DNA of 64,000 bases from Janthinobacterium lividum (GCA_050954545.1 JBPBQB010000288.1:1291-65290), one strand, 5' to 3'; counted from the first letter of the stretch, positions 1,207 through 55,604 are shown. The notes: generated by a model not told the origin, from the sequence alone. Numbers and translations are program-made.

Positions 1207-1434
1207 ATGAGAGTTATGGCTTTCACATTTACAGCCGTTTACCAAAAAGCGCCTGAAGGCGGCTACATTGGTTTTGTAAAAGAATTGCCAGGAACCAATA
1301 CTCAGGGTGAAACGCTGGAAGAAACACGTGATAACTTGCAGGAAGCGGCTGCCCTCGTTTTAGCAGGAAACCGTATACTCGCTGAAGAGGCTCTTGCAGG
1401 GCAAGAAGCTATCCGTGAACCCCTACATCTATGA
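1207..1434 (+). CDS. hicB: HicB-family antitoxin-like protein (no hicA seen)
   Basis: FTAVYQKAPEGGYIGFVKELPGTNTQGETLEETRDNLQEA resembles the HicB/UPF0150 N-terminal domain. 4-nt overlap with lysC start. Confidence 0.7.
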   Translation: MRVMAFTFTAVYQKAPEGGYIGFVKELPGTNTQGETLEETRDNLQEAAALVLAGNRILAEEALAGQEAIREPLHL

Positions 1435-2807
1435 CAGATACACAACATAATTCGTCTTCTACTAATCCGCCGCACAAGCACCCTCGCCCGATTGTCGCCA
1501 AGTTCGGCGGCTCATCAGTGGCCGATGCGGATCAAATCCGTAAGATCGCCGCGATCGTTCATGCCGATCCCCGGCGGCGGTTCGTGGTCGTGTCTGCGCC
1601 GGGCAAGCGGACGGACAAAGATAAGAAGATCACGGATCTGCTCTATCTCTGCCACTCGCTTGGAGAACAGGGGCTGGATGCCTCCGCGCCGTTCGCGATC
1701 ATCAAAGAGCGCTACTTAGGCATCGCGGCGGATCTGAACGTGCCGGGTGCGTGGGAATGGCTGCGGGACATCGGGCAGCAGATCGCATCGGGCGCGGCGA
1801 AAGACTGGGTGGCATCGCGCGGCGAGTACCTGAGTGCGCGGATCATTGCCGAGTTTTTGGGCGGCGAGTTTGTGGACGCTGCCGACAGCGGTATCCGGTT
1901 CGGCACAGATGGCCGGTTCCATCCCGGCGAAAGCTATGGGCGGCTCGGCGCTCGGCTTCAGTCCGTTCCCGAGGGCAAGATCGCCGTCATTCCCGGTTTC
2001 TACGGCCAGGACACCCAGGGCAAGATCAAGTGCTTCTCACGCGGCGGTTCCGATGTCACCGGTGCGATTGTTGCCCGTGCCGTCCACGCCGCCATTTATG
2101 AGAACTGGACCGATGTGTCCGGGCTTCTTATGGCCGACCCGCGCCTCGTCGAAAACCCCTGCGCGATCGAGGAAATCACCTACCGGGAGCAGCGCGAGCT
2201 TTCCTACATGGGCGCGACCGTGCTGCACGATGAGGCAGTGTTCCCTGTCCGTGAAGCCGGTATCCCGATCCATATCAAGAACACGAACGCCCCGGAAGAC
2301 CCCGGCACACGCATTGTCACTCAGCGGGATTCGCGCAATACCAGCGTGGTCGGGATTGCCGGACGTAAAGGCTTCGCGACACTGTTCACCGAAAAAGCTA
2401 TGATGAACCAGGAGCGCGGCTACGGGCGCAAAGTGCTGGAAATTCTCGAGTCGCACGGCATTTCCTATGAGCATTCGCCGACCAGTATCGACACGCTTTC
2501 GGTGATTTTGACCGACGAAGAGCTCGACGGCAAAGAAGCCGAGGTCGTCGCCGAAATCCAGCGCGTCGTCCAGCCTGACCGCATCGAAGTCCAGCGCGAC
2601 ATGGCCATGCTCGCTGTCGTTGGTCAGGGCATGGTTCACCGGGTCGGCATCGCCGCCCAGGTCTTCGCGGCTCTGGCAGGCGCAGGCGTTAACATCCGCA
2701 TGATCAACCAGGGTTCCAGTGAGCTAAACATCATCGTCGGCGTCCCCGCCGACGACTACGAAAATGCCATCCGTGCCATCTACGACGCATTTGCGGGACA
2801 GGAGTAA
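1431..2807 (+). CDS. lysC: aspartate kinase
   Basis: KFGGSSVAD kinase motif, 458 aa, C-terminal ACT-like region. Confidence 0.9.
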   Translation: MTDTQHNSSSTNPPHKHPRPIVAKFGGSSVADADQIRKIAAIVHADPRRRFVVVSAPGKRTDKDKKITDLLYLCHSLGEQGLDASAPFAIIKERYLGIAADLNVPGAWEWLRDIGQQIASGAAKDWVASRGEYLSARIIAEFLGGEFVDAADSGIRFGTDGRFHPGESYGRLGARLQSVPEGKIAVIPGFYGQDTQGKIKCFSRGGSDVTGAIVARAVHAAIYENWTDVSGLLMADPRLVENPCAIEEITYREQRELSYMGATVLHDEAVFPVREAGIPIHIKNTNAPEDPGTRIVTQRDSRNTSVVGIAGRKGFATLFTEKAMMNQERGYGRKVLEILESHGISYEHSPTSIDTLSVILTDEELDGKEAEVVAEIQRVVQPDRIEVQRDMAMLAVVGQGMVHRVGIAAQVFAALAGAGVNIRMINQGSSELNIIVGVPADDYENAIRAIYDAFAGQE

Positions 2808-2814
2808 GTTCACT

Positions 2815-3582
2815 ATGGCGTATGTTCCTAAAATTCCTGTAGAGGCCCCTGATTACAAAATCTGTTCGGACTTTATAATAGGGCAGATTTCAGCAATTAT
2901 GGCAGATGCCCTAAGTGTCGGCAACAACAAAATTTTTATTCACACAAATCTAAAGCGTGGTTTACCTCTCGAAAACATCAACAAAATTGCCGGACCTTTT
3001 GTTGAAGCCTGGGCAATGGAGCAGTTTGAGAATATCGCGGATATATTTGACAACGCTTACAAATTAATTTACGCAGAAGCAGGAAGGCGATTAGATGCAC
3101 ATGACATCATTTTACAATTTCGTCGCGCTGACAAACAAGCAGGATATGTCTCCGCTTATGTTGATGTCAAAGCAACTGCAGAGGATATATTAAGTTCAGG
3201 GAAAAGCCCGAATATCACTTCATATGCGCGTATCCGCTCTGAGTATATCAATGACCCTGACTATATCTTTATTGTTCTCTCGCTAAAGCATCGTGTTTTC
3301 AGTGAAAAGCAGAAAGATACGGGAATGACGAATGGTATTATGGAAGTCGTGTCATACTCTGTTTACGATCTGAAATTTATTTCTGAGGCCGACCTAAGTT
3401 ACAACCCTTCTCTCGGAACTGGTCAGCTTCAGATTCGGGATATTCATTATGTCCAGCTCGTTGCAAGAACAACTTGGGACTTCTGTCAGATGCTCGACGC
3501 GAAGTTTATGCGATCGCGTTCGCGGGGCGAAGAAGGCTGGTTGCTGATGGCCAAGAAGTATGGATGGGTAAAGGAGATTTAG
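2815..3582 (+). CDS. putative type II restriction endonuclease
   Basis: ATG 7 nt after lysC stop. Ends 4 nt before the methyltransferase gene. Possible PD-(D/E)XK elements (AHDIILQF ... YVDVKAT). No family recognised. Confidence 0.5.
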   Translation: MAYVPKIPVEAPDYKICSDFIIGQISAIMADALSVGNNKIFIHTNLKRGLPLENINKIAGPFVEAWAMEQFENIADIFDNAYKLIYAEAGRRLDAHDIILQFRRADKQAGYVSAYVDVKATAEDILSSGKSPNITSYARIRSEYINDPDYIFIVLSLKHRVFSEKQKDTGMTNGIMEVVSYSVYDLKFISEADLSYNPSLGTGQLQIRDIHYVQLVARTTWDFCQMLDAKFMRSRSRGEEGWLLMAKKYGWVKEI

Positions 3583-3586
3583 TGGC

Positions 3587-4435
3587 ATGGAAGCAGAAGC
3601 TATAGAAACTGACCGGCTGATTTGCGGCGATGCCGTTGCAGTAATGAAGACACTGCCCAGCGGTACGGTCGATTTGATTATCGCTGACCCTCCTTACAAT
3701 TTAGGTAAGGACTATGGCAACAATACTGATCGGAAAGCTAGGCACGAGTACGAAGAGTTTACGACACAGTGGCTAGAGGAAGCTGTTCGGCTCTTGAAGC
3801 CTAACGGTTCTATCTATGTCTTTATGGGTGTTCGGTTCATTTCCAGCCTGTTTCTCATGATGGAGGATAGATGCCAGTTAATTTTCAATGGATGGATTAC
3901 TTGGCACTATACACAAGGGATGGGAAGAAAGCTCGGATTTTCTCCAAGGCATGAGGACATTTTGTATTTTACTAAAAGCACAAAATTCATTTTTAATGTG
4001 GATGACGTAAGAATTCCACAGAAGTACTTTCGCAAGCGCAACAATATGAGTGGTGCCAACCCAGGCGACGTTTGGCAGTTTTCTCATGTTCATTATTGTA
4101 GCACGGAGCGTCAGGAGCACCCAACCCAGAAACCGGAAGCACTGCTGGAGCGCATCATTTTGGCTTCAAGCAACGAGAAAAACGTGATTCTGGATCCATT
4201 TGTTGGCAGCGGAACAACCTGCCGTGTCGCGAAATTATTGAACCGCAAATGGATCGGAATTGAGATCAACCCAGAATACATTTCTATGAGTACTAAACGT
4301 ATAGAAGACTCTAGTTATCAATTGGACTCTGTTGACCCTCGTACTTTACGGACTCCCAAAGACTTGCCAAAGGTGCCATCAGCATCACTGGAAACTTCTT
4401 TATCAACAGGCATTCTATCTCTCCCAGGTTTATAA
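3587..4435 (+). CDS. beta-class DNA N6-adenine/N4-cytosine methyltransferase
   Basis: Motif IV IIADPPYN near the N-terminus and motif I ILDPFVGSGTT near the C-terminus (beta-class order). Confidence 0.9.
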   Translation: MEAEAIETDRLICGDAVAVMKTLPSGTVDLIIADPPYNLGKDYGNNTDRKARHEYEEFTTQWLEEAVRLLKPNGSIYVFMGVRFISSLFLMMEDRCQLIFNGWITWHYTQGMGRKLGFSPRHEDILYFTKSTKFIFNVDDVRIPQKYFRKRNNMSGANPGDVWQFSHVHYCSTERQEHPTQKPEALLERIILASSNEKNVILDPFVGSGTTCRVAKLLNRKWIGIEINPEYISMSTKRIEDSSYQLDSVDPRTLRTPKDLPKVPSASLETSLSTGILSLPGL

Positions 4436-4441
4436 TGGCAT

Positions 4442-4593
4442 CCCAAGTTTTCGCGGCTCTGGCAGGCGCAGGCGTCAACATCCGCATGATCAACCAGGGT
4501 TCCAGCGAGCTAAACATCATCGTCGGCGTCCCCGCCGACGACTACGAAAACGCCATCCGTGCCATCTACGAGGCATTTGCGGGACAGGAATAA
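4442..4593 (+). pseudogene. duplicated lysC 3' end (last 50 codons plus stop), non-functional copy
   Basis: About 95% identical to 2656-2807 by hand alignment. No upstream lysC body. Confidence 0.9.
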
Positions 4594-4812
4594 GCCATGA
4601 GCTTGATTTGGGAAATGGTAAAGAGCGAAAGGAAAAACAAAAGTTTTTTCGGCGGGGTGATCTCCCCAATGTGGCGAACGAAAGTCCCTGGCGGATGGTT
4701 TATCATGATCGTTGGCCCATCGGATGCCGCCTTCTTCTACCCAGACCCGGAGCACCTCTGGGATGGTTCTTCGCTGCCATAGAGGTACAAAAGATGGCAG
4801 GGGGTAACGCCG

Positions 4813-5124
4813 ATGGTATCATCTATAGCTACAACAGATTTAGGTCAGTTACTTCAAGAAAAGCGTGAGGAAATCCTGCGGATCGCAGAACGGCACGGAG
4901 CGTACAACGTGCGTGTCTTTGGCTCGGTTGCACGCGGCGAGGCGGGGCCGAACAGCGATGTGGATTTTCTGATAGATGTCGGGCCAGTGCATTCGGCTTG
5001 GTTTCCCGGCGGTCTAGTTGTTGATTTAGAAACTTTGTTAGGCTGTCGTGTAGATATTATCACGGCGAATGCTCTGCACTGGTTCATACGCGACGAAATT
5101 TTGGCCGAGGCGAAACCGCTCTGA
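4813..5124 (+). CDS. nucleotidyltransferase-domain protein (MNT-type antitoxin-like)
   Basis: GSVARGEAGPNSDVDFLID polymerase-beta-type NTase motif. 103 aa. Confidence 0.8.
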   Translation: MVSSIATTDLGQLLQEKREEILRIAERHGAYNVRVFGSVARGEAGPNSDVDFLIDVGPVHSAWFPGGLVVDLETLLGCRVDIITANALHWFIRDEILAEAKPL

Positions 5125-5706: not shown

Positions 5707-6497
5707 CACACCCAATTTCTACACATTTAATCGTCGGCGCTTCTAGCGGGATCGGGCGGTCGCTTGCCCTAGCACTGGCGCGGGAGCGGCGGCATGTGAC
5801 GCTGGTTGGGCGGCATGAAGGGCGTTTGACGCGAGTGGCCGAGGAAGTGAAGATGTTCGGCGGGGAGCCGCTGGTCGCGATCTCAGACGTTCGTGATCCG
5901 GTGTCGATCCAGGCTGCCCTGGCACAGATCGTGCTGCGTCGAATGCGGATCGAGCTTGCCGTGCTGTCATCAGGAGTTGGTTTAACGACCAATGTCGAAG
6001 ATTTTACCGCCGATACGCTGGAAACCATGCTGGAGACCAACGTGCTGGGCGTCGCCCGGTGGCTGGAAGCTCTGCAGCCGCTGCTGAAGGCGCAGCCGGG
6101 GGGCGCAACTGTTGCGGTGCTGTCCAGTCTCGCTGCCGACCGGGCGTTTCCCGGAGCCAGCGCGGGCTACTCGGCCAGCAAGGCCGCGCTTTCCCATCTG
6201 TGTGACGGTCTGCGGGCTCCGTGGGCCATGCAAAATATTCGGCTGGTGACAGTCGCACCGGGCTACATTCGCACACCGATGACGACGGAGCAGGCCTGGA
6301 TGCCCTTCTTGATGGAACCCGAGGACGCGGCGCAAGTAATCTTGGAAAGCGTTCGGGCAGGTCAGCGGGTCGTTCGCTTTCCCAGGGCCGCGTCGCTGCT
6401 GACCAGCACGATCCGAAGACTCCCGCCGTCGCTGCTTGACCGTTTGTATCAGATCAAAGCGCCGGGCGGGGTTCGAGTCGGGAACGAGCGGGAATAA
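5703..6497 (+). CDS. short-chain dehydrogenase/reductase (SDR) family oxidoreductase
   Basis: VGASSGIGRSLA cofactor motif and YSASKAAL catalytic motif. Confidence 0.85.
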   Translation: MTHPISTHLIVGASSGIGRSLALALARERRHVTLVGRHEGRLTRVAEEVKMFGGEPLVAISDVRDPVSIQAALAQIVLRRMRIELAVLSSGVGLTTNVEDFTADTLETMLETNVLGVARWLEALQPLLKAQPGGATVAVLSSLAADRAFPGASAGYSASKAALSHLCDGLRAPWAMQNIRLVTVAPGYIRTPMTTEQAWMPFLMEPEDAAQVILESVRAGQRVVRFPRAASLLTSTIRRLPPSLLDRLYQIKAPGGVRVGNERE

Positions 6498-6545: not shown

Positions 6546-7274
6546 ATGCAGAAGTTCTTTTCTTCTCACGCAGCAGTCTCAGCCCTGGCGCTGATGACTG
6601 TCTGCGGCGCGGCCCATGCCGATCTAAAAGTCGTGCAGACAACCAGCATCGATAGCCCGCAACTCAAAGCTTACGAAGAGACCATGACCCCGCAGCAGAA
6701 GGCGTCTATGGCAAAGTCCGGCAACCCGCTGTTCCAGAACGGCCCGCAGCAGACGACTGTTTACGAACATGGTAGGCAGATAAGAACCGACATCGGCTCG
6801 ACCAGCTACCTAATCAACAGCGCAACCCGCCAAACGATAACTCTGAACCGCCGCATCCGAAATTACACGACACAACCTTATCGAACACCGCCCACAACAG
6901 GCCAGGGAACAGTAAACGTGAAAGACACAGGGCAGACTAAGACATTCGCTGGCCATCTCGCTCGTCACTATCTGCTGACTGCCACCCTGGCAGCTCAACC
7001 CGGCACACTTATTCAAGGCGATATTTGGGCCGCTTCGGATATTCCCCAGCCCACAATGCTGTCGACTGGGTCCGGCCCGTTCGCGGTTCTTCAAAGCCTG
7101 TTTCATAAGATCAAAGGTTATCCGCTAAAGTCGACGCTGACTGTCACCGGCAGCCCGCTCGGCAACACGACTGTCACCACCAACGTGGTTTCGGTCTCGA
7201 AGTCCCCTCTGCCGGATTCGCTGTTTTCGATCCCGGCCGGCTACACAAAATCGGCAGCGGAAGCACGCGGGTAA
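6546..7274 (+). CDS. hypothetical exported protein
   Basis: MQKFFSSHAAVSALALMTVCGAAHA signal-peptide-like start. AGGAG lies 10 nt upstream of ATG 6546. Confidence 0.6.
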   Translation: MQKFFSSHAAVSALALMTVCGAAHADLKVVQTTSIDSPQLKAYEETMTPQQKASMAKSGNPLFQNGPQQTTVYEHGRQIRTDIGSTSYLINSATRQTITLNRRIRNYTTQPYRTPPTTGQGTVNVKDTGQTKTFAGHLARHYLLTATLAAQPGTLIQGDIWAASDIPQPTMLSTGSGPFAVLQSLFHKIKGYPLKSTLTVTGSPLGNTTVTTNVVSVSKSPLPDSLFSIPAGYTKSAAEARG

Positions 7275-7284
7275 AGAGGGGATC

Positions 7285-7455
7285 CCCCCACCCCCGCCGC
7301 TTCGCGTCGACCCCTGCCCCCGCAAGCGGGAGAGGGGTGAAGATTTGGAAGTGAAGTTAGGAGGGAAGCTTTTGCTTCTCTCTTGTCTTAATCCTGTTCC
7401 TACCCCTCTCCCGCTTGCGGGGGCAGGGGTCGACGCGAAGCGGCGGGGGTGGGGG
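7285..7455. repeat. perfect 54-bp inverted repeat (7285-7338 / 7402-7455), 63-bp spacer
   Basis: CCCCCACCCCCGCCGCTTCGCGTCGACCCCTGCCCCCGCAAGCGGGAGAGGGGT and its exact reverse complement, between convergent genes. Confidence 0.95.
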
Positions 7456-36788: not shown

Positions 36789-37035
36789 AATCCCGGCCTT
36801 GATGGGGAAGAGTAAGCGGCACCGACTGCATTAGAGAGGGAACGCCACCGGCTGCAAGCGTTCCCGCAGCCAAGCCGCCGAAGGTCGCCCCGGAGCCGAA
36901 GTCGAAAATGAGTGTTTGCGCTGGGTTTACTGGCGCAGAAAGCAAGGTGGTACCGCGCGTCGGCTACGTTCAGCGTAAAGCCCCCGCGTCCTTGCGATAG
37001 GTTAAACCCTGTCGCGATGGACGCGGGGGCTTTTG
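36789..37035 (+). promoter_or_regulatory. T-box riboswitch leader, probable Val (GUC) specifier, with terminator
   Basis: T-box sequence AAAGCAAGGTGGTACCGCG at 36939-36957. Stem I elements GATGGGGAAGAGTAAG and TTAGAGAGGG. GAAGGUCG at 36881-36887. Terminator AAAGCCCCCGCGTCC ... GGACGCGGGGGCTTTT at 36977-37034. Confidence 0.8.
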
Positions 37036-37050
37036 TGGTTTGGAGCGATT

Positions 37051-37662
37051 ATGAGAACAGCCTACAGCGTAATTGTTGCCCTAATTCTGCTGACAGGAGT
37101 GTCAGTGCAGGCACAGCAGGTGGTCGTGCCGGGCCGCAGCATAGGAACAATCACGCTTGGAATGCCAGGGCCCGAAGTTTGGAAGCATTTGGGCAGGCCA
37201 ACAGTCTATTTCCTGCACCTTGCCGGACGGTCTTACGTCTGTGACTGCTTTGAAGTCAGCAACAAGCGTGAGATTGTGACTTCGCATTACGGGCAGGTCG
37301 TTCAGATTGAGCGCGATGTGACGGACGACGAACGCCGCAAATATTTCTTTCCGTTCCTGCGCGGGCAATACCCGTACCTAAAAGCCACATTGTATGATGT
37401 ACCTGAAGAAGATGGCTGTACGATTAAGGCAGATAATGTTTCGCAAGGTATAGCATGGGCAATTTTCATTATCCACTATCAAGATGGCGCGTTTAGCGCT
37501 AAAGTACTAAACGACATCGGTCCGGGCAGAGTAATTGTGCATTGGCCTGGCACAAAGGTTTTGCCCAACGCCGGAGAAATTAAAGATGAGCACGACTCAT
37601 CTTTCGGTGATATTCGCGCCTGGTTTGCGGCAAAGCCACCCAAGCCGCATAAAGGAAACTAA
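37051..37662 (+). CDS. hypothetical exported protein directly after the T-box terminator
   Basis: GGAG 37042-37045, ATG 37051. MRTAYSVIVALILLTGVSVQAQQ signal peptide. 203 aa. Confidence 0.6.
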   Translation: MRTAYSVIVALILLTGVSVQAQQVVVPGRSIGTITLGMPGPEVWKHLGRPTVYFLHLAGRSYVCDCFEVSNKREIVTSHYGQVVQIERDVTDDERRKYFFPFLRGQYPYLKATLYDVPEEDGCTIKADNVSQGIAWAIFIIHYQDGAFSAKVLNDIGPGRVIVHWPGTKVLPNAGEIKDEHDSSFGDIRAWFAAKPPKPHKGN

Positions 37663-37663
37663 T

Positions 37664-37741
37664 ATGGAAAAAGCTTGCGAACCTAAAGATGTGGAAGCGC
37701 GGCTGTGCCCAGAGTGGAAAGATGGCTCTTTAAATGGATAA
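37664..37741 (+). pseudogene. truncated duplicate of the valS 5' end (19 valS codons, then stop)
   Basis: MEKACEPKDVEARLCPEWK versus the true valS MEKAYEPKDVEARLYPEWE. Part of direct repeat 37651-37721 = 39350-39420. Confidence 0.85.
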
Positions 37742-39188
37742 TGCGGAATTATCGAGCCTGCTTACGACTTTACGCGCCGAACCTCATGAATCGGAGTGGA
37801 TAGAGTTCAAGGAGAACAACGAAGCCCCAGACATGATCGGGCAACGACTGTCTGCGCTTGCCAATGCTGCGGCTCTGCTTGGGAAAGAGCGGGCTTACTT
37901 CGTCTGGGGTATCGAAGATGGCTCCCATCGCATTGTTGGCACGACGTTTTCTCCGCGTCGGGCAAAAGTAGGCAATGAAGAACTCGAATCCTGGCTGTCA
38001 CATCATCTGAGTCCCTGTCCTGACTTTCGGATCCATGTCTTACCGGTCCAGGAAACTTCAGTCGTTTTGTTTGAAATTACTCCAGCACAGCACACTCCTG
38101 TTCGCTGGAAGGAAACTGCGTATGTCCGCATCGGAAGTTATACGAAAAAGCTTCAAGATTACCCTGAAAAGGAACGGTCCCTCTGGCTCACACTATCTCG
38201 GCATCCCTTCGAGAGTCGGGTCGCGCTTTCTGGCTGCTCGGAAGATGATATTTTGTCCCTTTTGGATTATGATGCCTACTTTCGACTGACAAAGCAAAGT
38301 CTTCCAGCCACTAGAATCGGTATTTTAGAGCGTTTAGCCAGCGAAAAGATGATTGTTCGCAAAGAAGAACGTTTTGACGTTCTCAATCTTGGAGGGTTGC
38401 TTTTTGCCCGCAGGTTATCCGATTTCAGTACGCTGAGTCGTAGGGCAACACGAGTTATTGATTACTCGGGAAATGCACGAATTAGTGGAGGTCGAGAGCA
38501 TATTTCGCTTTCTGGATACGCTGCTGGTTTCGAGTCTTTAATTGCTTACATAAAGACCCGCTTGCCGAACAATGAGCACATTGCTCAAGCCCTCCGAGTC
38601 GAAACCGAAATTTATCCTGAGATCGCGCTTCGTGAACTCGTGGCCAATGCAATTATCCATCAGGACTTGGACGCTCAAGGCGACAGTCCCTTTGTCGAGA
38701 TGTTTGAAGATCGCCTTGAAATCACCAATCCTGGAAGGCCGCTAATCAGTCCACTGCGTTTTATTGATGAGCCGCCACAGTCGCGCAACGAAACACTTGC
38801 AGCATTTATGCGGCGTGTTAACATCTGTGAAGAACGTGGCAGTGGTATTGACAAAGTCATCCATGCCGTCGAAATCTGGCAGTTACCAGCACCGGAATTC
38901 ACGGAGACAGAGCGGCACACACGGATTTACCTTCATGCGCCGCGAACTTTCCGGGAAATGAGCACTAAGGATCGAACTCGTGCTTGTTATCAGCATGTTT
39001 GTTTGATGTATGTCTTCAATCAATCCGCGACGAATTCAAGCCTTCGTAAACGATTTTCTTTTCAAGATGAGGATTACAAGATTGTCTCTAAAATTATCAA
39101 TGACACAACGAAAGAGGGCATGATTAAACCTTACGATTCTGAGAACCGTTCGCGGCGTCATGCACGGTATATTCCTTTCTGGGCGTAG
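37734..39188 (+). CDS. AlbA_2 (Schlafen-like) DNA-binding domain protein with HATPase_c_4-like C-terminal domain
   Basis: N-terminus ESEWIEFKENNEAPDMIGQRLSALANA. C-half RELVANAIIHQDL...LEITNPGRPL. 484 aa, typical length for this architecture. Confidence 0.7.
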   Translation: MDNAELSSLLTTLRAEPHESEWIEFKENNEAPDMIGQRLSALANAAALLGKERAYFVWGIEDGSHRIVGTTFSPRRAKVGNEELESWLSHHLSPCPDFRIHVLPVQETSVVLFEITPAQHTPVRWKETAYVRIGSYTKKLQDYPEKERSLWLTLSRHPFESRVALSGCSEDDILSLLDYDAYFRLTKQSLPATRIGILERLASEKMIVRKEERFDVLNLGGLLFARRLSDFSTLSRRATRVIDYSGNARISGGREHISLSGYAAGFESLIAYIKTRLPNNEHIAQALRVETEIYPEIALRELVANAIIHQDLDAQGDSPFVEMFEDRLEITNPGRPLISPLRFIDEPPQSRNETLAAFMRRVNICEERGSGIDKVIHAVEIWQLPAPEFTETERHTRIYLHAPRTFREMSTKDRTRACYQHVCLMYVFNQSATNSSLRKRFSFQDEDYKIVSKIINDTTKEGMIKPYDSENRSRRHARYIPFWA

Positions 39189-39201
39189 GCGGATTGTGTA
39201 A

Positions 39202-39341
39202 TTTCTTATATCCCTCTTATATCAGATTTATGGTATTACAGATAGCTCTCGGAAACAATATCTAGATAAAGGTATTGAATTGATACTATATCTAGGGTTT
39301 TATTCCATTTAGGAGCAGGTTTCTTATATCCCTTTTATATC
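39202..39341 (+). repeat. 22-bp direct repeat pair in the AT-rich cassette tail
   Basis: TTTCTTATATCCCTCTTATATC (39202-39223) and TTTCTTATATCCCTTTTATATC (39320-39341), 1 mismatch. Confidence 0.85.
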
Positions 39342-39362
39342 TTGTTTGCAAAGGAAACTAAT

Positions 39363-42206
39363 ATGGAAAAAGCTTACGAACCCAAAGACGTGGAAGCGCG
39401 GCTGTACCCGGAGTGGGAAGCGGCAGGGCTGTTTCATGCGGAGCCGACACCGGGGAAGCCGAAGTTCAGTATCAGCATTCCCCCGCCTAATGTCACGGGC
39501 AGCCTGCATATGGGCCATGCCCTCAACCATGCGGTGCAGGATACGCTTGGGCGCTGGCACAAGATGCAGGGCGATACGGTGCTGATCCTGCCCGGCATGG
39601 ATCATGCGGGGATCGCGACACAGACGGTTGTTTCCCGGCAGATCGAGAAGGAAGGGCTGACGCGCTTTGATCTGGGCCGCGAGAAGTTTGTCGAGCGTGT
39701 ATGGGCCTGGAAGGAAGAATACGGTTCACGCATTCTCGTTCAGCTCAAGCGGCTGGGCTGCGGGTACGACTGGTCACGCCTCCGCTTCACGATGGACCCG
39801 GAATATGCCGAGGCCGTGGCGGAAGCGTTTGTCCGCTTCTTTGATGCCGGGCTGATCTACCGGGGCAAACGAATGGTGAACTGGTCGGTGGGCCTGCAAA
39901 CGGTTATCTCGGATATTGAAGTGGAAAATATCGAGACCGACGGCTCACTCTGGCACATTAATTACCCGTTCGCTGATGGTTCCGGCACTGTTACGGTGGC
40001 GACGACGCGCCCGGAAACACTGCTCGGCGATACGGCTGTGGCAGTCAACCCGGCCGATCCCCGCTATGCCGGGCTGATCGGCAAGATGCTGCTCCTTCCG
40101 CTGACCAATCGCGAGATCCCGCTGATCGCCGACGATTACGCGAGTATGGAGTTCGGGACGGGCGCAGTCAAGATCACCCCGGCCCATGACCCGAACGACT
40201 ATGAAGTAGGCCTGCGTCACAATCTGCCTCAGATCGCCGTGATCGGCTTCGACGGCAAAATGACCGAAGACGCCGGGGTTCGTTACGCAGGGCAGGACCG
40301 CTTTGAGGCGCGGGACCTGATTGTCGGTGATTTGGAAGCCGCCGGTGTACTCGAAAAGATCGAGCCATACCGTCATTCCATCCCGCATTGTGACCGGAGC
40401 AAGACCGTGATTGAGCCGCTGCTGTCCGAGCAGTGGTTCATGAAGATGGCCGGCACGGAACTGATCCAGAAGGCCACCGACATCGTGAATGACGGTGCGA
40501 TCCAGTTCGCCCCGAACCGCTACGCCAAGACCTATGTCGATTGGATGGACGGCATTCGCGACTGGGCCTTGTCTCGTCAGCTCTGGTGGGGCCACCGCAT
40601 TCCCATCTACTACAAGCCCGATGGGACTTATGTCGCCGCGAGAAATCTCGCCGAAGCGGTGGACCGTGCAGGCACTGACCAGTTGACGCAGGACGAAGAC
40701 GTACTCGATACGTGGTTTTCGTCTGCTCTGTGGCCGTTCGCGACTCTGGGCTGGCCGCACCAGACTCCTGATTTGGACTATTTCTATCCGACCGATTTCC
40801 TGACTACCGCCGGCGAAATCCTGCGCCTCTGGGTCGCGCGTATGGTGATGACCGGCTTAGAGTTCACCGGTAAGAAGCCTTTCTCCGACGTCTACATCCA
40901 TGCGACGGTGCTTGACAAAAAAGGCCGCCGGATGTCTAAAAGCCTCGGCAACGGCGTTGACCCTGTCGAGATGATCGATAAGTACGGGGCCGACGCCCTG
41001 CGCTTCTCCCTGCTGCGTCTGGCTTCCAAAGGCCAGGACATCAAGTTCAGCGAAGAGCGGGTACCTGAATCGCGTAACTTTGCCAACAAGCTCTGGAACG
41101 CCGCCCGCTTTGTGCTGATGAATATGGAACCCACCCCTGCTCGTTCCTCGCTTTCCCCTCCCGAAACGGGAAGGGTAGGAGATGGAGAAAAGATCACGGG
41201 CATGGACACTGACGTTCCTCTTCCAGACTTTACCGAGTTTTTCGCTGAACATACTAATGCCAGCATCGCTAAAACTCTTAGTCCTCCCGTTTCGGGAGGA
41301 CCCCTGCGAAGCAAGGAGGTGGGTTCCCTCCCGGAACGCTGGATACTCTCACGTTTGCAGCGGACGGTACAAACTGTGAACAGTGCGCTGGGAACTTACG
41401 ACATGGACGATGCCTGCGGGGCGCTCTATGAGTTTGTCTGGGGCGAGTATTGTGACTGGTTTGTCGAGCTGTGTAAGCCTTCGCTGCAAGGTGAAGACGA
41501 CTCGGCTAAAGACTCGGCTCGGGCAGCGCTTTATACAGTGCTCGAAACGACACTACGCCTGCTGCACCCGATCATGCCATTTGTGACGGAAGAAATCTGG
41601 CAAAATCTGCCGGGTAAGACCGAAAGCATTAGCCTGGCCCCTTACCCTATTTTAGATGAGGCTTTGATCGATACTGAGGCTGAGGCCGGGATCGGACTGC
41701 TGATCGAGAGCATCACGGCTTTGCGCGGCTTGCGGGCGGAATTCACGCCGGGCGGACAGGAAAACGAAGCCGCACGGGCCGCAATGCTCAACCGAAAGTT
41801 GACAGTCATTGCCGTTGCTGAAAGCGCAGCAGCGACCGCAACATTGCGCGGACAGTTGCCCGCCCTTGTTGCGCTTGCGCGTCTCGGTGAAGTGTCTGTT
41901 GCGGACGCTGTGCCGACAAACGGCAAATATGTTCCCGCCGGTGTTTCCGGCGCGGCGTTCTACGTCCCTGCCGGTGAGCTGCTGGAAGGTCTCGACCCAG
42001 CAAAAGAGTCCGCACGGCTGGAAGCAGAGATCGTTAAACTAGACAAAGAGCTTGCCGGAGTGCAGGGGCGATTGAACAATCCAAGCTTTGTCGAGCGAGC
42101 GTTGCCGGAAGTCGTCGAAAAAGCACGGGCTGACGCCGCTGATTTGGTTCAGCGTCAGACAAAACTGGAAATGCGGCGCGGACTGCTGACAAGCACCCAG
42201 GATTGA
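39363..42206 (+). CDS. valS: valine--tRNA ligase
   Basis: HIGH-type SLHMGHALN, KMSKS-type RMSKSLGN, C-terminal coiled coil. ATG 39363. Confidence 0.95.
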   Translation: MEKAYEPKDVEARLYPEWEAAGLFHAEPTPGKPKFSISIPPPNVTGSLHMGHALNHAVQDTLGRWHKMQGDTVLILPGMDHAGIATQTVVSRQIEKEGLTRFDLGREKFVERVWAWKEEYGSRILVQLKRLGCGYDWSRLRFTMDPEYAEAVAEAFVRFFDAGLIYRGKRMVNWSVGLQTVISDIEVENIETDGSLWHINYPFADGSGTVTVATTRPETLLGDTAVAVNPADPRYAGLIGKMLLLPLTNREIPLIADDYASMEFGTGAVKITPAHDPNDYEVGLRHNLPQIAVIGFDGKMTEDAGVRYAGQDRFEARDLIVGDLEAAGVLEKIEPYRHSIPHCDRSKTVIEPLLSEQWFMKMAGTELIQKATDIVNDGAIQFAPNRYAKTYVDWMDGIRDWALSRQLWWGHRIPIYYKPDGTYVAARNLAEAVDRAGTDQLTQDEDVLDTWFSSALWPFATLGWPHQTPDLDYFYPTDFLTTAGEILRLWVARMVMTGLEFTGKKPFSDVYIHATVLDKKGRRMSKSLGNGVDPVEMIDKYGADALRFSLLRLASKGQDIKFSEERVPESRNFANKLWNAARFVLMNMEPTPARSSLSPPETGRVGDGEKITGMDTDVPLPDFTEFFAEHTNASIAKTLSPPVSGGPLRSKEVGSLPERWILSRLQRTVQTVNSALGTYDMDDACGALYEFVWGEYCDWFVELCKPSLQGEDDSAKDSARAALYTVLETTLRLLHPIMPFVTEEIWQNLPGKTESISLAPYPILDEALIDTEAEAGIGLLIESITALRGLRAEFTPGGQENEAARAAMLNRKLTVIAVAESAAATATLRGQLPALVALARLGEVSVADAVPTNGKYVPAGVSGAAFYVPAGELLEGLDPAKESARLEAEIVKLDKELAGVQGRLNNPSFVERALPEVVEKARADAADLVQRQTKLEMRRGLLTSTQD
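41127..41326. repeat. degenerate palindromic element lying in frame inside valS
   Basis: Arms 41127-41175 and 41283-41326 share the GAACCCACC terminus and a CTCCCGAAACGGGA(A)GG core in inverted orientation. The left arm aligns with the arm of the 13008 element. Confidence 0.6.
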
Positions 42207-46815: not shown

Positions 46816-46929
46816 AATTACCAAAAATAGTTTTTGGTTTGGGCGAAATCGCCCTAAAGAAATCGTTCACTTTGACCTATAATAGTTTTGTTACCGGCCA
46901 GAGTGGCGCGGGACAAATAAATGACGACG

Positions 46930-47060
46930 ACACTAAAGGCAAACCCGCCGGCATTGCCGGGTGATCGAAAGACGGGGACGCAAAGCTAAAGGGTCTAAGG
47001 CCGCTCACGCTGCTATGATCGCCAAGCCGCCGCACCGCCTGCGTAAACGGGTGAAGACCC
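46930..47060 (+). promoter_or_regulatory. c-di-GMP-I (GEMM-I) riboswitch candidate upstream of flgM
   Basis: AAAGGCAAACCC 46935-46946, GAAA tetraloop 46967-46970, GGGGACGCAAAGC 46974-46986. Tetraloop-receptor-like CTAAGG ... TATG at 46995-47016. Confidence 0.6.
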
Positions 47061-49377: not shown

Positions 49378-49997
49378 ACGACTCAAGAGTCGTATTATGC
49401 GCCGGCGCAACTTCCGACTCTTGAGTCGTGTATTTATTATCTAAATGGGGCAAATCATGGATGAAATTGATAGAGAACGATTTTCTTTAAGCTATGTGTT
49501 TATAGATGACTGCTGGATCTGGTTTCGCAGCCTTGTCAAAGATGGCTACGGATCAATTCGTATTGCGGGCAGAACACGTCGCGCTCATCGGGTGTCTTAC
49601 GAACTTGCTTATGGTGTAGTATTGTCTCCTGACCAATTCTTACATCATATATGTAAGAATAAGGCTTGTGTGAATCCACTGCATCTTGAAATTACCACCC
49701 AAGCGCCCTATGTCGACAGTGCAATTTACGGCAACAAAGAAAAGACGCATTGTCCTTACGGGCATGAATACACAGAAGCGAATACCTGCTGGCGTAAAAA
49801 CAAGAAGCAAAGAGAATGTATGACATGCAAATTGGCTAGAATGAAACGGCGTCAGGTACGTATACAGCAGGCGGCGGCAGAAAAGCTGGAAGCATTAGCA
49901 CTGAAATGTCGCCTGACGACACCTCAATAAACATATACACAGTATACGATTCAAGAGTCAGAAGTTGCGCCGGCGCATAATACGACTCTTGAGTCGT
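49378..49997. mobile_element. HNH nuclease gene flanked by inverted copies of a 52-bp hairpin
   Basis: 49378-49429 and 49946-49997 are reverse complements (2 mismatches). Each is itself a 15-bp-stem hairpin. Interior AT-rich. Confidence 0.6.
49445..49930 (+). CDS. HNH endonuclease
   Basis: CWIW...DGYGSIRIAGRTRRAHRVSYEL...HHICKNKACVNPLHLE plus C-terminal Cys/His cluster THCPYGHEY...CMTC. Confidence 0.8.
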   Translation: MGQIMDEIDRERFSLSYVFIDDCWIWFRSLVKDGYGSIRIAGRTRRAHRVSYELAYGVVLSPDQFLHHICKNKACVNPLHLEITTQAPYVDSAIYGNKEKTHCPYGHEYTEANTCWRKNKKQRECMTCKLARMKRRQVRIQQAAAEKLEALALKCRLTTPQ

Positions 49998-50019
49998 ATA
50001 TGAAACGAGTGGGATTGTT

Positions 50020-54452: not shown

Positions 54453-55073
54453 ATGGCATCATTGCCCAAAACTCGCTATACACCGGAGCAATATCTGGAA
54501 ATCGACCGCAAGGCTGAACACCGCAGTGAATATGTCAATGGCGAGATTCGGGCGATGGCCGGGGCAAGCCGGGAACATAACCTGATTGTCACAAATCTTG
54601 TACGAGAGCTGAGCCTTCGTTTGCGCGGTCAGCCGTGCGAGACATACTCTAATGATATGCGCGTCACCATCAGCCTAGTTCGTTATGCTTATCCTGATGT
54701 GGTTATTGCCTGCAATCATCCACAGTTCATAGACGGTCAACTGGACACTCTAACCAATCCTAGCGTCATAATAGAAGTGTTATCATCGACAACTCAAAAT
54801 GACGACCGAAGCTGGAAATTTGCACATTACCGGCGTCTGGCAACGCTTACCGATTACGTGATGCTTTCTCAATACCAGCCGTTTGCAGAACATTACGCGC
54901 GGCAAAGCGATAACCAGTGGGTTTTAACAGAGCTGAGTGGCCTGGAGGCCGTTTTGCTTCTGCCTTCTCTTGGCTGTGAGCTATCACTGGCTGATATTTA
55001 CGAGCGCATCGAGTTCACGCCTGACCCGGACATGCCTGCACTGGAACTGTGGAAAAACGAACCCCAGGGTTAA
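54453..55073 (+). CDS. Uma2-family (DUF820) endonuclease
   Basis: YTPEQYLEIDRKAEHRSEYVNGEIRAMAGASREHNLIVTNL is the Uma2 N-terminal signature. Confidence 0.8.
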   Translation: MASLPKTRYTPEQYLEIDRKAEHRSEYVNGEIRAMAGASREHNLIVTNLVRELSLRLRGQPCETYSNDMRVTISLVRYAYPDVVIACNHPQFIDGQLDTLTNPSVIIEVLSSTTQNDDRSWKFAHYRRLATLTDYVMLSQYQPFAEHYARQSDNQWVLTELSGLEAVLLLPSLGCELSLADIYERIEFTPDPDMPALELWKNEPQG

Positions 55074-55084
55074 GACAGAAAACT

Positions 55085-55348
55085 ATGACGACAATCACAC
55101 TCACACCCGACCTAGAAGAAGCCATCTCAGCACAGGCACGTAAGCAAGCGACGACACCCGAGCAGGTCGTCTTGGAAATACTTCGCGAGAAATTCCTGCC
55201 GCTGCTGGAACAGATAAACGAAACAGACACGCTGAGTGACTGGGAGCGGCAGATGCAGGACGCAGCAATCGCGGTCGAAGAAGCACTGGCGCAGAACTGT
55301 GCGGTGCTAAAGGGAAAAAATAATGACGACAATCACATTGACACCTGA
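55085..55348 (+). CDS. small antitoxin-like protein, copy 1 of a tandem pair
   Basis: MTTITLTPDLEEAISAQARKQATTPEQVVLEIL. Its 3' end reads through the duplicated start region of copy 2. Confidence 0.45.
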   Translation: MTTITLTPDLEEAISAQARKQATTPEQVVLEILREKFLPLLEQINETDTLSDWERQMQDAAIAVEEALAQNCAVLKGKNNDDNHIDT

Positions 55349-55604
55349 ACTGGAAGCAGTTCTTAATCAGAGGGCCGCGACCCAAGGAATAACGCCTGAG
55401 CGGCTGGCGCTTGATGGCTTGCGACAGCTTTACATGACACCGCCGGTGAATGAAAAAAGACCCGAGGAAGAAAGCAGCGAGACTCTATTTGACTTCCTGA
55501 ATGGATATGTCGGAACTATTGCGGGAAGCACGGAAGCCTTTTCAGAGAACGGCGGTGAGAGGTTTGCACAGGGGCTTGCCGAGAAGCACGAGCTTCAGAA
55601 ATGA
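55323..55604 (+). CDS. VapB-type antitoxin candidate, copy 2
   Basis: MTTITLTPELEAVLNQRAATQGITPERLALDGL. ATGA overlap with the vapC start. Confidence 0.55.
   Translation: MTTITLTPELEAVLNQRAATQGITPERLALDGLRQLYMTPPVNEKRPEEESSETLFDFLNGYVGTIAGSTEAFSENGGERFAQGLAEKHELQK

Follow-up and report, generated by a model that had tools for sequence, protein, structure and literature searches.

Insertion of restriction–modification (R-M) units with long target duplication was reportedly described by Nobusato et al. in 2000. Furuta, Abe & Kobayashi (2010, NAR 38:2428, PMC2853133), who cite that work as reference 37, recognized such cases by the following features: the insert contains the genes of both a restriction endonuclease (R) and a methyltransferase (M), is shorter than 20 kb and carries no other mobile element, the duplication exceeds 30 bp, and the repeat can be aligned with an insert-free genome. 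The cases of these authors come from Proteobacteria, Thermus, cyanobacteria and Actinobacteria. An R-M life cycle of invasion, amplification through repeats and release was also proposed, and the steps of release and re-infection were stated to be without experimental evidence. In the present work, an R-M gene pair located directly behind the aspartate kinase gene lysC was analyzed in a DNA stretch of 64,000 nucleotides (nt) listed as Janthinobacterium lividum (GCA_050954545.1 JBPBQB010000288.1:1291-65290; hereinafter, the window). This locus belongs to the already known kind of insertion with long target duplication; the present data add that the duplicated end of lysC seems to have stayed recombinationally active.

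The locus consists of the following features:
1431..2807, + strand, lysC, aspartate kinase, 458 amino acids (aa), intact (PF00696 AA_kinase, E 2.6e-37, and ACT domains)
2649..2808, + strand, repeat copy 1, the functional lysC 3' end, made up of the final 52 codons, the stop codon and 1 nt (repeat scan, codon-by-codon comparison)
2809..4434, + strand, inserted segment of 1,626 nt with only R and M inside (composition; absent at at least 17 related loci)
2815..3582, + strand, R, predicted type IIP restriction endonuclease, 255 aa (homologs, predicted fold, invariant residues)
3587..4435, + strand, M, beta-class DNA methyltransferase, predicted to be N6-adenine-specific, 282 aa (PF01555, E 3.5e-66)
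4435..4594, + strand, repeat copy 2, the lysC tail (repeat scan, open reading frame, ACT_9 match)
4597..4782, + strand, orf61, the gene directly 3' of the lysC stop codon wherever the site is empty (tblastn panel, junction sequences)

The repeat scan found the direct-repeat pair 2649-2808 / 4435-4594, which is 160 nt long and 94% identical (150/160 positions matched, 10 mismatches). It is the sole long direct repeat within the first 8 kb of the window, and the scan showed no further copies elsewhere in the 64 kb. In the initial annotation, the repeat had been delimited by hand as 2656-2807 / 4442-4593 with seven mismatches, and a recount gave exactly seven in these 152 nt. The concern that it might be a widespread repeat can be dismissed: it is specific to lysC and occurs twice in the window. 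It lies inside the lysC coding sequence and is neither a tRNA, nor an att site, nor a dispersed repeat. The other junctions were also read correctly in that annotation. A gap of 7 nt separates the lysC stop codon (2805-2807) from the R start codon at 2815; only two open reading frames (ORFs), 2815-3582 and 3587-4435, lie between the copies, R first and then M; and the M stop codon (4433-4435) stands 6 nt ahead of copy 2 as first delimited (4442), overlapping the first base of the extended repeat (4435). The interior is AT-rich, as had been noted by eye, with a GC content of 0.437 in 2809-4434 versus 0.57 in the flanks.

R and M are foreign AT-rich DNA, and lysC was left intact by the insertion. 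Copy 2, hereinafter the tail, forms an intact 52-codon ORF in the lysC frame (4435-4593), whose ATG overlaps the M stop codon (TAATG) and whose product matches ACT_9 with E 6e-19. The survey of ORFs and Pfam domains revealed no integrase or transposase gene in or beside the insert; the neighbours of the unit in the window are a HicB-like gene, lysC, orf61 and an NTP_transf_2 gene.

Related lysC loci (designated by L numbers) were collected in a one-genome-per-species scan, which gave 42 loci, and in a second scan of metagenomes, which gave 11. The closest lysC relatives, with 79–91% protein identity, belong to metagenome-assembled genomes (MAGs) of Capsulimonadaceae and other Armatimonadota, the Capsulimonadaceae MAGs reaching 85–91%. 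The empty site predicted for relatives was found at at least 17 loci (L005, L006, L010, L012-L016, L021, L027 and the metagenome loci L047 and L052-L057). There, a single lysC 3' end leads to a homolog of orf61 that starts 2–10 nt past the lysC stop codon (2–7 nt in L005, L006, L010, L012-L016, L021 and L027). A lysC tail without any cassette, the finding that would have told against the proposed insertion, was seen at none of these cargo-free loci. The empty sites belong to relatives at the species level or above (83–91% nt identity), none of them of the same species. No exact match to the window lysC protein was found, and the window-specific peptide PADDYENAIRAIY(D/E), searched as degenerate DNA, had no match in the metagenome scan.

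The initial assignment to insertions with long target duplication is thus supported on every point listed in PMC2853133: a 1,626-nt insert, a 160-nt repeat, R together with M, and empty sites. As in such insertions generally, the cargo consists only of R and M and includes no mobility gene, the repeat greatly exceeds in length the duplications made by transposons or att recombination, it is single-copy in insert-free relatives and overlaps a gene 3' end, and the insert is deviant in its GC content. Several features distinguish the window from the cases of PMC2853133. Its host belongs to Armatimonadota (Capsulimonadaceae), a phylum that is not among the cases in that paper. The described cases are within-species polymorphisms, whereas the window insertion is common to lineages at the species level or above. 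In addition, the lysC frame holds at least two unrelated R-M systems, the lysC repeats evolve in a concerted, coding-like way, and a non-R-M defence-type gene with the same architecture is present at valS in the same genome.

As for the R protein, 2,953 homologs were found, several of them named 'restriction endonuclease', and there was no match in Pfam, NCBIfam or the PDB sequences; its fold was therefore predicted. The AlphaFold (AF2) model based on 36 homologs has a pLDDT (predicted local distance difference test) value of 89. According to Foldseek, the model is most similar to R.SwaI (5tgq; E 5e-9, template modelling scores 0.61/0.68), followed by HincII (E 1e-7) and EcoRV (E 6e-4), at sequence identities of 13–17%. 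The residues D97 and D117-V-K119, which form a D...DxK motif, are invariant across the 36 homologs. Because of the model matches and these invariant residues, R is predicted to be a type IIP endonuclease with a fold of the EcoRV/HincII/SwaI class, its partner being an N6-methyladenine (m6A) methyltransferase; the earlier designation of this gene as a putative restriction endonuclease thus gains support from a modelled type II fold and a catalytic motif. One R homolog, 68% identical, was named HpaI by its depositor, and this is the only link of R to HpaI. A check for avoidance of the HpaI site GTTAAC gave two occurrences in the window, with 3.8 expected.

The M protein matches PF01555 and carries DPPY at residue 34 ahead of FVGSGTT at residue 205; this order, motif IV before motif I, confirms the beta class proposed earlier. 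Its closest solved relatives among the PDB sequences are M.MboIIA, M.RsrI and CcrM. In its R fold, the PD...(D/E)xK motif, the adjacent co-oriented PF01555 gene and the motif order of M, the pair resembles EcoRV/HincII/SwaI-class type IIP systems with a beta-class m6A methyltransferase; it differs from them in that R has no sequence-level match to solved structures, Pfam or NCBIfam. The ratio of nonsynonymous to synonymous divergence (dN/dS) does not exceed 0.07 for R where estimable, nor 0.12 for R and M in the pairs with estimable dS, and both genes are under strong purifying selection. This pair, again with R ahead of M, is also present in other phyla, at unrelated sites. At L063 and L065, where both flanks are readable, no long repeats flank it, and therefore the duplication is not a fixed property of the cassette. 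No R homolog was found in phage records; one, 53% identical, is located on a 6-kb MOBQ plasmid of Acinetobacter junii, the single plasmid occurrence.

In the host part of the window, many 6-bp palindromes are strongly avoided: CAGCTG (0 observed/20 expected), GCGCGC (0/29), TGCGCA (0/24), CCCGGG (1/24), CCGCGG (2/30), GGCGCC (2/26) and CTCGAG (1/10). Such avoidance suggests that many type II restriction systems have acted on this DNA over a long time.

The same cassette is located behind lysC in L001, L002/L003, L008, L022 and L068/L069, in each case with the lysC stop codon, a homologous spacer of 6–7 nt and the R start. In L004, the same cassette and tail are present on a contig that ends before lysC. 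The tail after M measures ~153 nt in L068, 115–119 nt in L001 and L008 and ~117 nt in L004; by reading of the junction sequences, a remnant of ~20 nt is left in L002, while the tail is almost or wholly gone in L003 and absent in L022. In a tree of ~110 homologs, the lysC-linked R proteins formed one clade. The cassette and the flanking genes have diverged in parallel: between the window and L001, nt identity is 75.5% for R, 75.8% for M, 75.6% for SurE, 76.1% for SDR and 83.3% for lysC, and between L001 and L008, it is 87.6% for R, 87.2% for M, 88.4% for SDR and 87.6% for lysC. The flanking genes of cassette-sharing lineages are only 75–84% identical in DNA. Occupied and empty lineages are intermingled in the lysC tree. 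The dS values are saturated between the window and all other lineages and are usable only for L001 versus L008 and nearby pairs.

Judging from these comparisons, the insertion appears to be old and not a recent event in the window genome. The 94% identity of the repeats would therefore not give the age of the duplication but would reflect later recombination between the copies. The simplest reading would be one early acquisition at the junction and long retention of a functional system, with several losses or transfers within the family. In L022 (7357-8117), the lysC-linked R gene is frameshifted near codon 160 and M is intact, which may represent a solitary-methyltransferase stage or an assembly error.

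Other cargos occupy the same position. In L007, lysC is followed by a PF01555 methyltransferase gene and a convergent gene for a BsoBI-family endonuclease (E 5e-74), then by a lysC tail of 73–87 nt and orf61; in L051, a BsoBI-type cargo stands directly behind the lysC stop codon. In L048, the methyltransferase ATG overlaps the lysC stop codon, and a Bpu10I-family endonuclease gene (E 1.4e-85) and a 154-nt tail follow; the boundaries, including the start of the tail, agree with those of the window within 3 nt. Dcm-like, Vsr-like and HATPase-like ORFs were recognized by eye from translations further down the lysC-SDR interval in L049. Thus, at least three unrelated type II systems are found at the lysC position, and two of them share both boundaries, which points to cargo exchange inside an existing frame of lysC and tail.

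The initial annotation had also claimed a second insertion of the same architecture at 37651-39420. The insertion is real, is of the same kind and has empty sites among relatives; however, it is located at the 5' end of valS and contains one gene instead of an R-M pair. Its features are as follows:
37651..37721, + strand, repeat copy 1, last 13 nt of ORF209 and first 19 codons of valS (repeat scan)
37734..39188, + strand, cargo gene for a 484-aa Schlafen/AlbA_2 and HATPase_c_4 protein (Pfam, E 1.3e-17 and 1.5e-22)
39350..39420, + strand, repeat copy 2, the true start of valS, with the ATG at 39363 and the gene end at 42206 (empty sites L070, L071)

The repeat pair 37651-37721 / 39350-39420 is 71 nt long and 92% identical, and copy 1 can be read as a 25-codon ORF (37664-37741) that overlaps the ATG of the cargo gene. 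At the empty sites, valS is preceded by an ORF209 homolog in L070 (valS 87% identical) and by a T-box leader in L071. The same cargo (85% identical) was found at the same position in L058-L061, accompanied by a 155-nt duplication of valS at 95% identity. In L058, copy 1 has the native upstream region of the L071 type (T-box to ATG), and copy 2 is preceded by GCAAAGGAAACT, which is the ORF209 3' end; no ORF209 is present upstream of valS in L058. The cargo and the right flank therefore seem to be derived from an ORF209-type genome by homologous recombination, and this flank supports probable lateral spread of such an architecture.

Two further observations concern the valS locus. The 161-nt 3' region behind the AlbA_2 cargo gene contains two copies of TTTCTTATATCCCT(C/T)TTATATC (39202-39223 and 39320-39341), both kept in L058 (~6470-6493 and ~6592-6613); these copies may act as promoters or operators that were imported with the cargo. 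In addition, a full-length match to a T-box leader is located at 36790-36996 (RF00230, 73.8 bits, E 3.7e-16, below the gathering score of 93), separated from valS (39363) by ORF209 (37033-37662), the valS 5' fragment and the AlbA_2 gene. Since the leader of L071 runs directly into valS, the inserted genes may be under tRNA-sensing control in the window, or valS may have escaped it.

The tails were compared with the lysC ends of their own and of other genomes. Of 107 shared sites, 4 distinguish the window tail from the lysC end of the same genome, and 15 or more distinguish it from the tails of other genomes. The dS between the window copies is 0.13–0.22, versus at least 0.89 for lysC between lineages. 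The window copies share private amino acid changes (PADDYENAIR...GQE) that are found in no other lineage, and the L068 copies behave likewise. Nine of the 10 differences between the window copies are located at third codon positions. When tail and own lysC were compared in six genomes and pooled, this was true for 57 of 83 differences (p = 1e-5, against an expectation of ~45%, which is our estimate for one neutral and one constrained copy), as well as for 24 of the 33 changes polarised to the tail branch. The lysC frame is open in every tail of the six genomes. For the tails of L048, L008, L001 and L007, the closest functional lysC end is that of the empty-site locus L006, and for the L004 tail, it is that of the empty-site loci L053/L057. 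The valS fragment copies show no third-position bias (3/6 and 2/7 differences). Unusual constraint on synonymous sites in the final part of lysC might have betrayed a hidden element of DNA or RNA; the idea was rejected, since conservation there, although present, does not exceed that of other lysC regions.

Assuming that the duplication dates back as far as the cassette, a neutrally evolving tail would be expected to differ from lysC by far more than 6%. We infer that the tails are not decaying like pseudogenes and that recombination between the copies keeps them lysC-like. The tails may recently have been functional gene ends, with loss of the cassette by repeat recombination and regain by pairing of the tail with the lysC end of a recipient. 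Indirect selection may also act, since the tail can convert lysC. Finally, the tail may be translated and selected as a peptide.

The probable overall explanation, in our opinion, is that the locus carries an integrase-free compact R-M operon, inserted with long target duplication, which has an old single origin and whose repeats kept recombining. The cassette would have entered lysC once, early in the family. Since then, the lysC copies would have been recombining by gene conversion within the genome, by homologous recombination between relatives, or by both. Between relatives, the repeat would permit precise loss of the cassette and would also provide a homology arm for its regain and for cargo exchange. 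Such ongoing recombination would explain the 94% identity of the copies despite the ~25% divergence of the cassette from its orthologs, as well as the coding-like tails and the scattered distribution of occupied lineages.

Several points weigh against this explanation. With synonymous sites of R and M saturated, the co-divergence is judged solely from overall identity and dN, and the deep branching of the R tree disagrees with the lysC tree in some quartets. The GC content at third codon positions (GC3) of the cassette differs by lineage, being 0.42–0.46 in the window and 0.60 in L001, which is unexpected for equal residence times; because of the saturation and this variation, strict vertical descent is not proven. 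No near-identical pair of occupied and empty genomes above ~92% was found, the closest pair being ~91% identical in the flanks, and gain and loss are thus deduced across species and not within one. The invariant Arg is mutated in two tails (R>C in L068, R>H in L048), which indicates some decay. The third-position bias could also stem from direct selection on a translated tail.

Tentatively, the tail may be seen as a working homology arm of an integrase-free cassette site, with R-M systems excised, regained and swapped among Capsulimonadaceae via the lysC ends. Each tail would therefore recently have been a functional gene end. If true, this possibility would explain both the coding-like evolution of the tail and its resemblance to the lysC ends of empty sites. 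Comparative data would then speak for release and re-infection as steps in the R-M life cycle that has been proposed, and the valS case, with its recombinant flank in a relative, would be another instance of this process, with a non-R-M defence gene as cargo and the 5' end of a gene as target.

It seems rather unlikely that the tail is kept for use, either as a 35–52-aa peptide with an ACT fragment or for ribosome read-through that couples orf61 to the operon. The frame open in all six genomes and the third-position bias of the differences would fit such a use, as would the ATG overlapping the M stop codon in the window and a TTG directly behind the M stop codon in L068. The changes in the L068 tail are nearly all GC-to-AT at third positions, like those of a constrained gene with relaxed codon bias, and the valS fragment copies are without such bias. 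However, no start codon is conserved, and L008, L004 and L048 have none at the beginning of the tail. Shortened tails are found in L001, L004, L008 and L007, and little or nothing of the tail is left in L002, L003 and L022. The Arg replaced in two tails is the otherwise invariant one of the NIRMINQG motif, and selection for coupling alone would remove stop codons but tolerate missense changes.

A recent one-off insertion in the window lineage, with the 6% difference between the copies as the divergence accumulated since, is hard to credit. It would agree with the 94% identity and the lineage-specific characters shared by the copies, and the GC3 of the window cassette is, together with that of M in L022 (0.45), the least host-like among those compared. 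However, the same cassette with the 6–7-nt spacer is found in at least five other lineages, whose R genes form one clade, and independent de novo insertions would not have common junctions. A neutral copy should also change at all codon positions, and nine of the 10 differences are at the third.

We likewise see little chance that the unit is the remnant of a genomic island integrated at an attB site in the lysC 3' end, with the repeats as attL/attR and the integrase later deleted. Tyrosine-recombinase islands at gene 3' ends (tRNA, tmRNA or protein genes) resemble the lysC unit in that the target is regenerated, the duplicated 3' end is left as a long direct repeat flanking the foreign DNA, and one site can take different cargos, as different islands do on one attB; the repeat boundaries of the window and L048 are common as well. 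The lysC unit differs from such islands in having no recombinase, a variable repeat length (73–160 nt between loci) and a two-gene cargo without other island DNA. No recombinase gene is present in or next to the insert at any occupied locus, the transposase of L001 lying beyond the tail, and no integrase-bearing version was found among ~45 related loci. Three unrelated cargos abut both boundaries within 0–30 nt without island remnants.

It is very improbable that a tandem duplication of the lysC end predated the cargo and R-M systems landed between its copies by chance: unrelated cargos (HpaI-like in the window and L068, Bpu10I-like in L048) do lie within the same two boundaries, but a second lysC tail is present in none of the at least 17 cargo-free relatives, a cargo-free duplication would vanish quickly by recombination, and the common boundaries are explained equally well if cargo was exchanged by homologous recombination in the flanks.

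As for expression of the old, recombining cassette favoured above, AGGAG is located in the last lysC codons, 10 nt ahead of the R ATG, and AAGGAG 10 nt ahead of the M ATG, inside the end of R. Copy 2 carries AGGAA in the corresponding position ahead of orf61. At the empty sites, the last lysC codons (AAGGAG) stand 6–9 nt before the orf61 start, and therefore the lysC end would be the ribosome-binding site of orf61. Promoter and terminator scans revealed no promoter-like or terminator-like site at the lysC-R junction, and their matches were only those expected from the AT-richness of the insert. The cassette would have no promoter of its own and would be transcribed from lysC, the AGGAG of the lysC end providing R with a ribosome-binding site; the sequence is compatible with such read-through. 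The duplicated tail would restore the upstream context of orf61, and therefore neither neighbour would be harmed. The locus may be described as a predicted defence operon riding on a housekeeping gene while sparing both lysC and the downstream neighbour.

The lysC-SDR interval also resembles sites of R-M allelic substitution and defence hotspots, as it holds different R-M and toxin-antitoxin-like pairs, and exchange through its homologous flanks is likely. It differs from defence hotspots between core genes in that one 'flank' of the lysC site is no independent core gene but a fragment duplicated from the neighbouring gene and moving together with the cargo. The interval is a variable islet in L001, L009, L010, L013, L020, L026, L049 and L068. 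Depending on the relative, it contains an MNT/HepT toxin-antitoxin pair, a pair of small ORFs, the larger of which has weak Asp_protease_2 matches in L001, two acyltransferase-like ORFs (L009) or an insertion sequence (L001); the L009 contents and most calls of the ORF pair were made by eye. In the window, an MNT gene (4813-5124) is present without a HepT partner. In L001 (7566-7769), the lysC tail and the C-terminal part of orf61 have been joined in frame by a deletion (...AFAD-S-AFFYPDPEHLWDGSSLP), and this fusion was called as a 67-aa ORF with an ACT_9 match.

Other repeats and a regulatory element were observed in the window. A perfect inverted repeat of 54 nt with a 63-nt spacer is located at 7285-7338 / 7402-7455, and another, of 61 nt with 84% complementarity and a 29-nt spacer, at 1039-1099 / 1129-1189; each may be an element like a miniature inverted-repeat transposable element (MITE) or a large hairpin. 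Two more direct-repeat pairs were found at 49378-49433 / 49946-50001 (56 nt, 80%) and 55072-55121 / 55310-55359 (50 nt, 78%), the latter resembling the starts of two tandem paralogous small genes. A c-di-GMP-I riboswitch aptamer was detected at 46928-47034 on the + strand (RF01051, 50.8 bits, above the gathering score).

The lysC locus is an informative example of its kind, as it combines many empty sites, several diverged occupied sites of one origin, three unrelated R-M cargos and a parallel case at valS. Its coding-like repeats, which resemble empty-site alleles, provide a handle on cassette cycling by homologous recombination, and the interest of the locus would rise if population data confirmed such cycling through the repeat. 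The locus thus bears on how R-M systems without mobility genes move between genomes.

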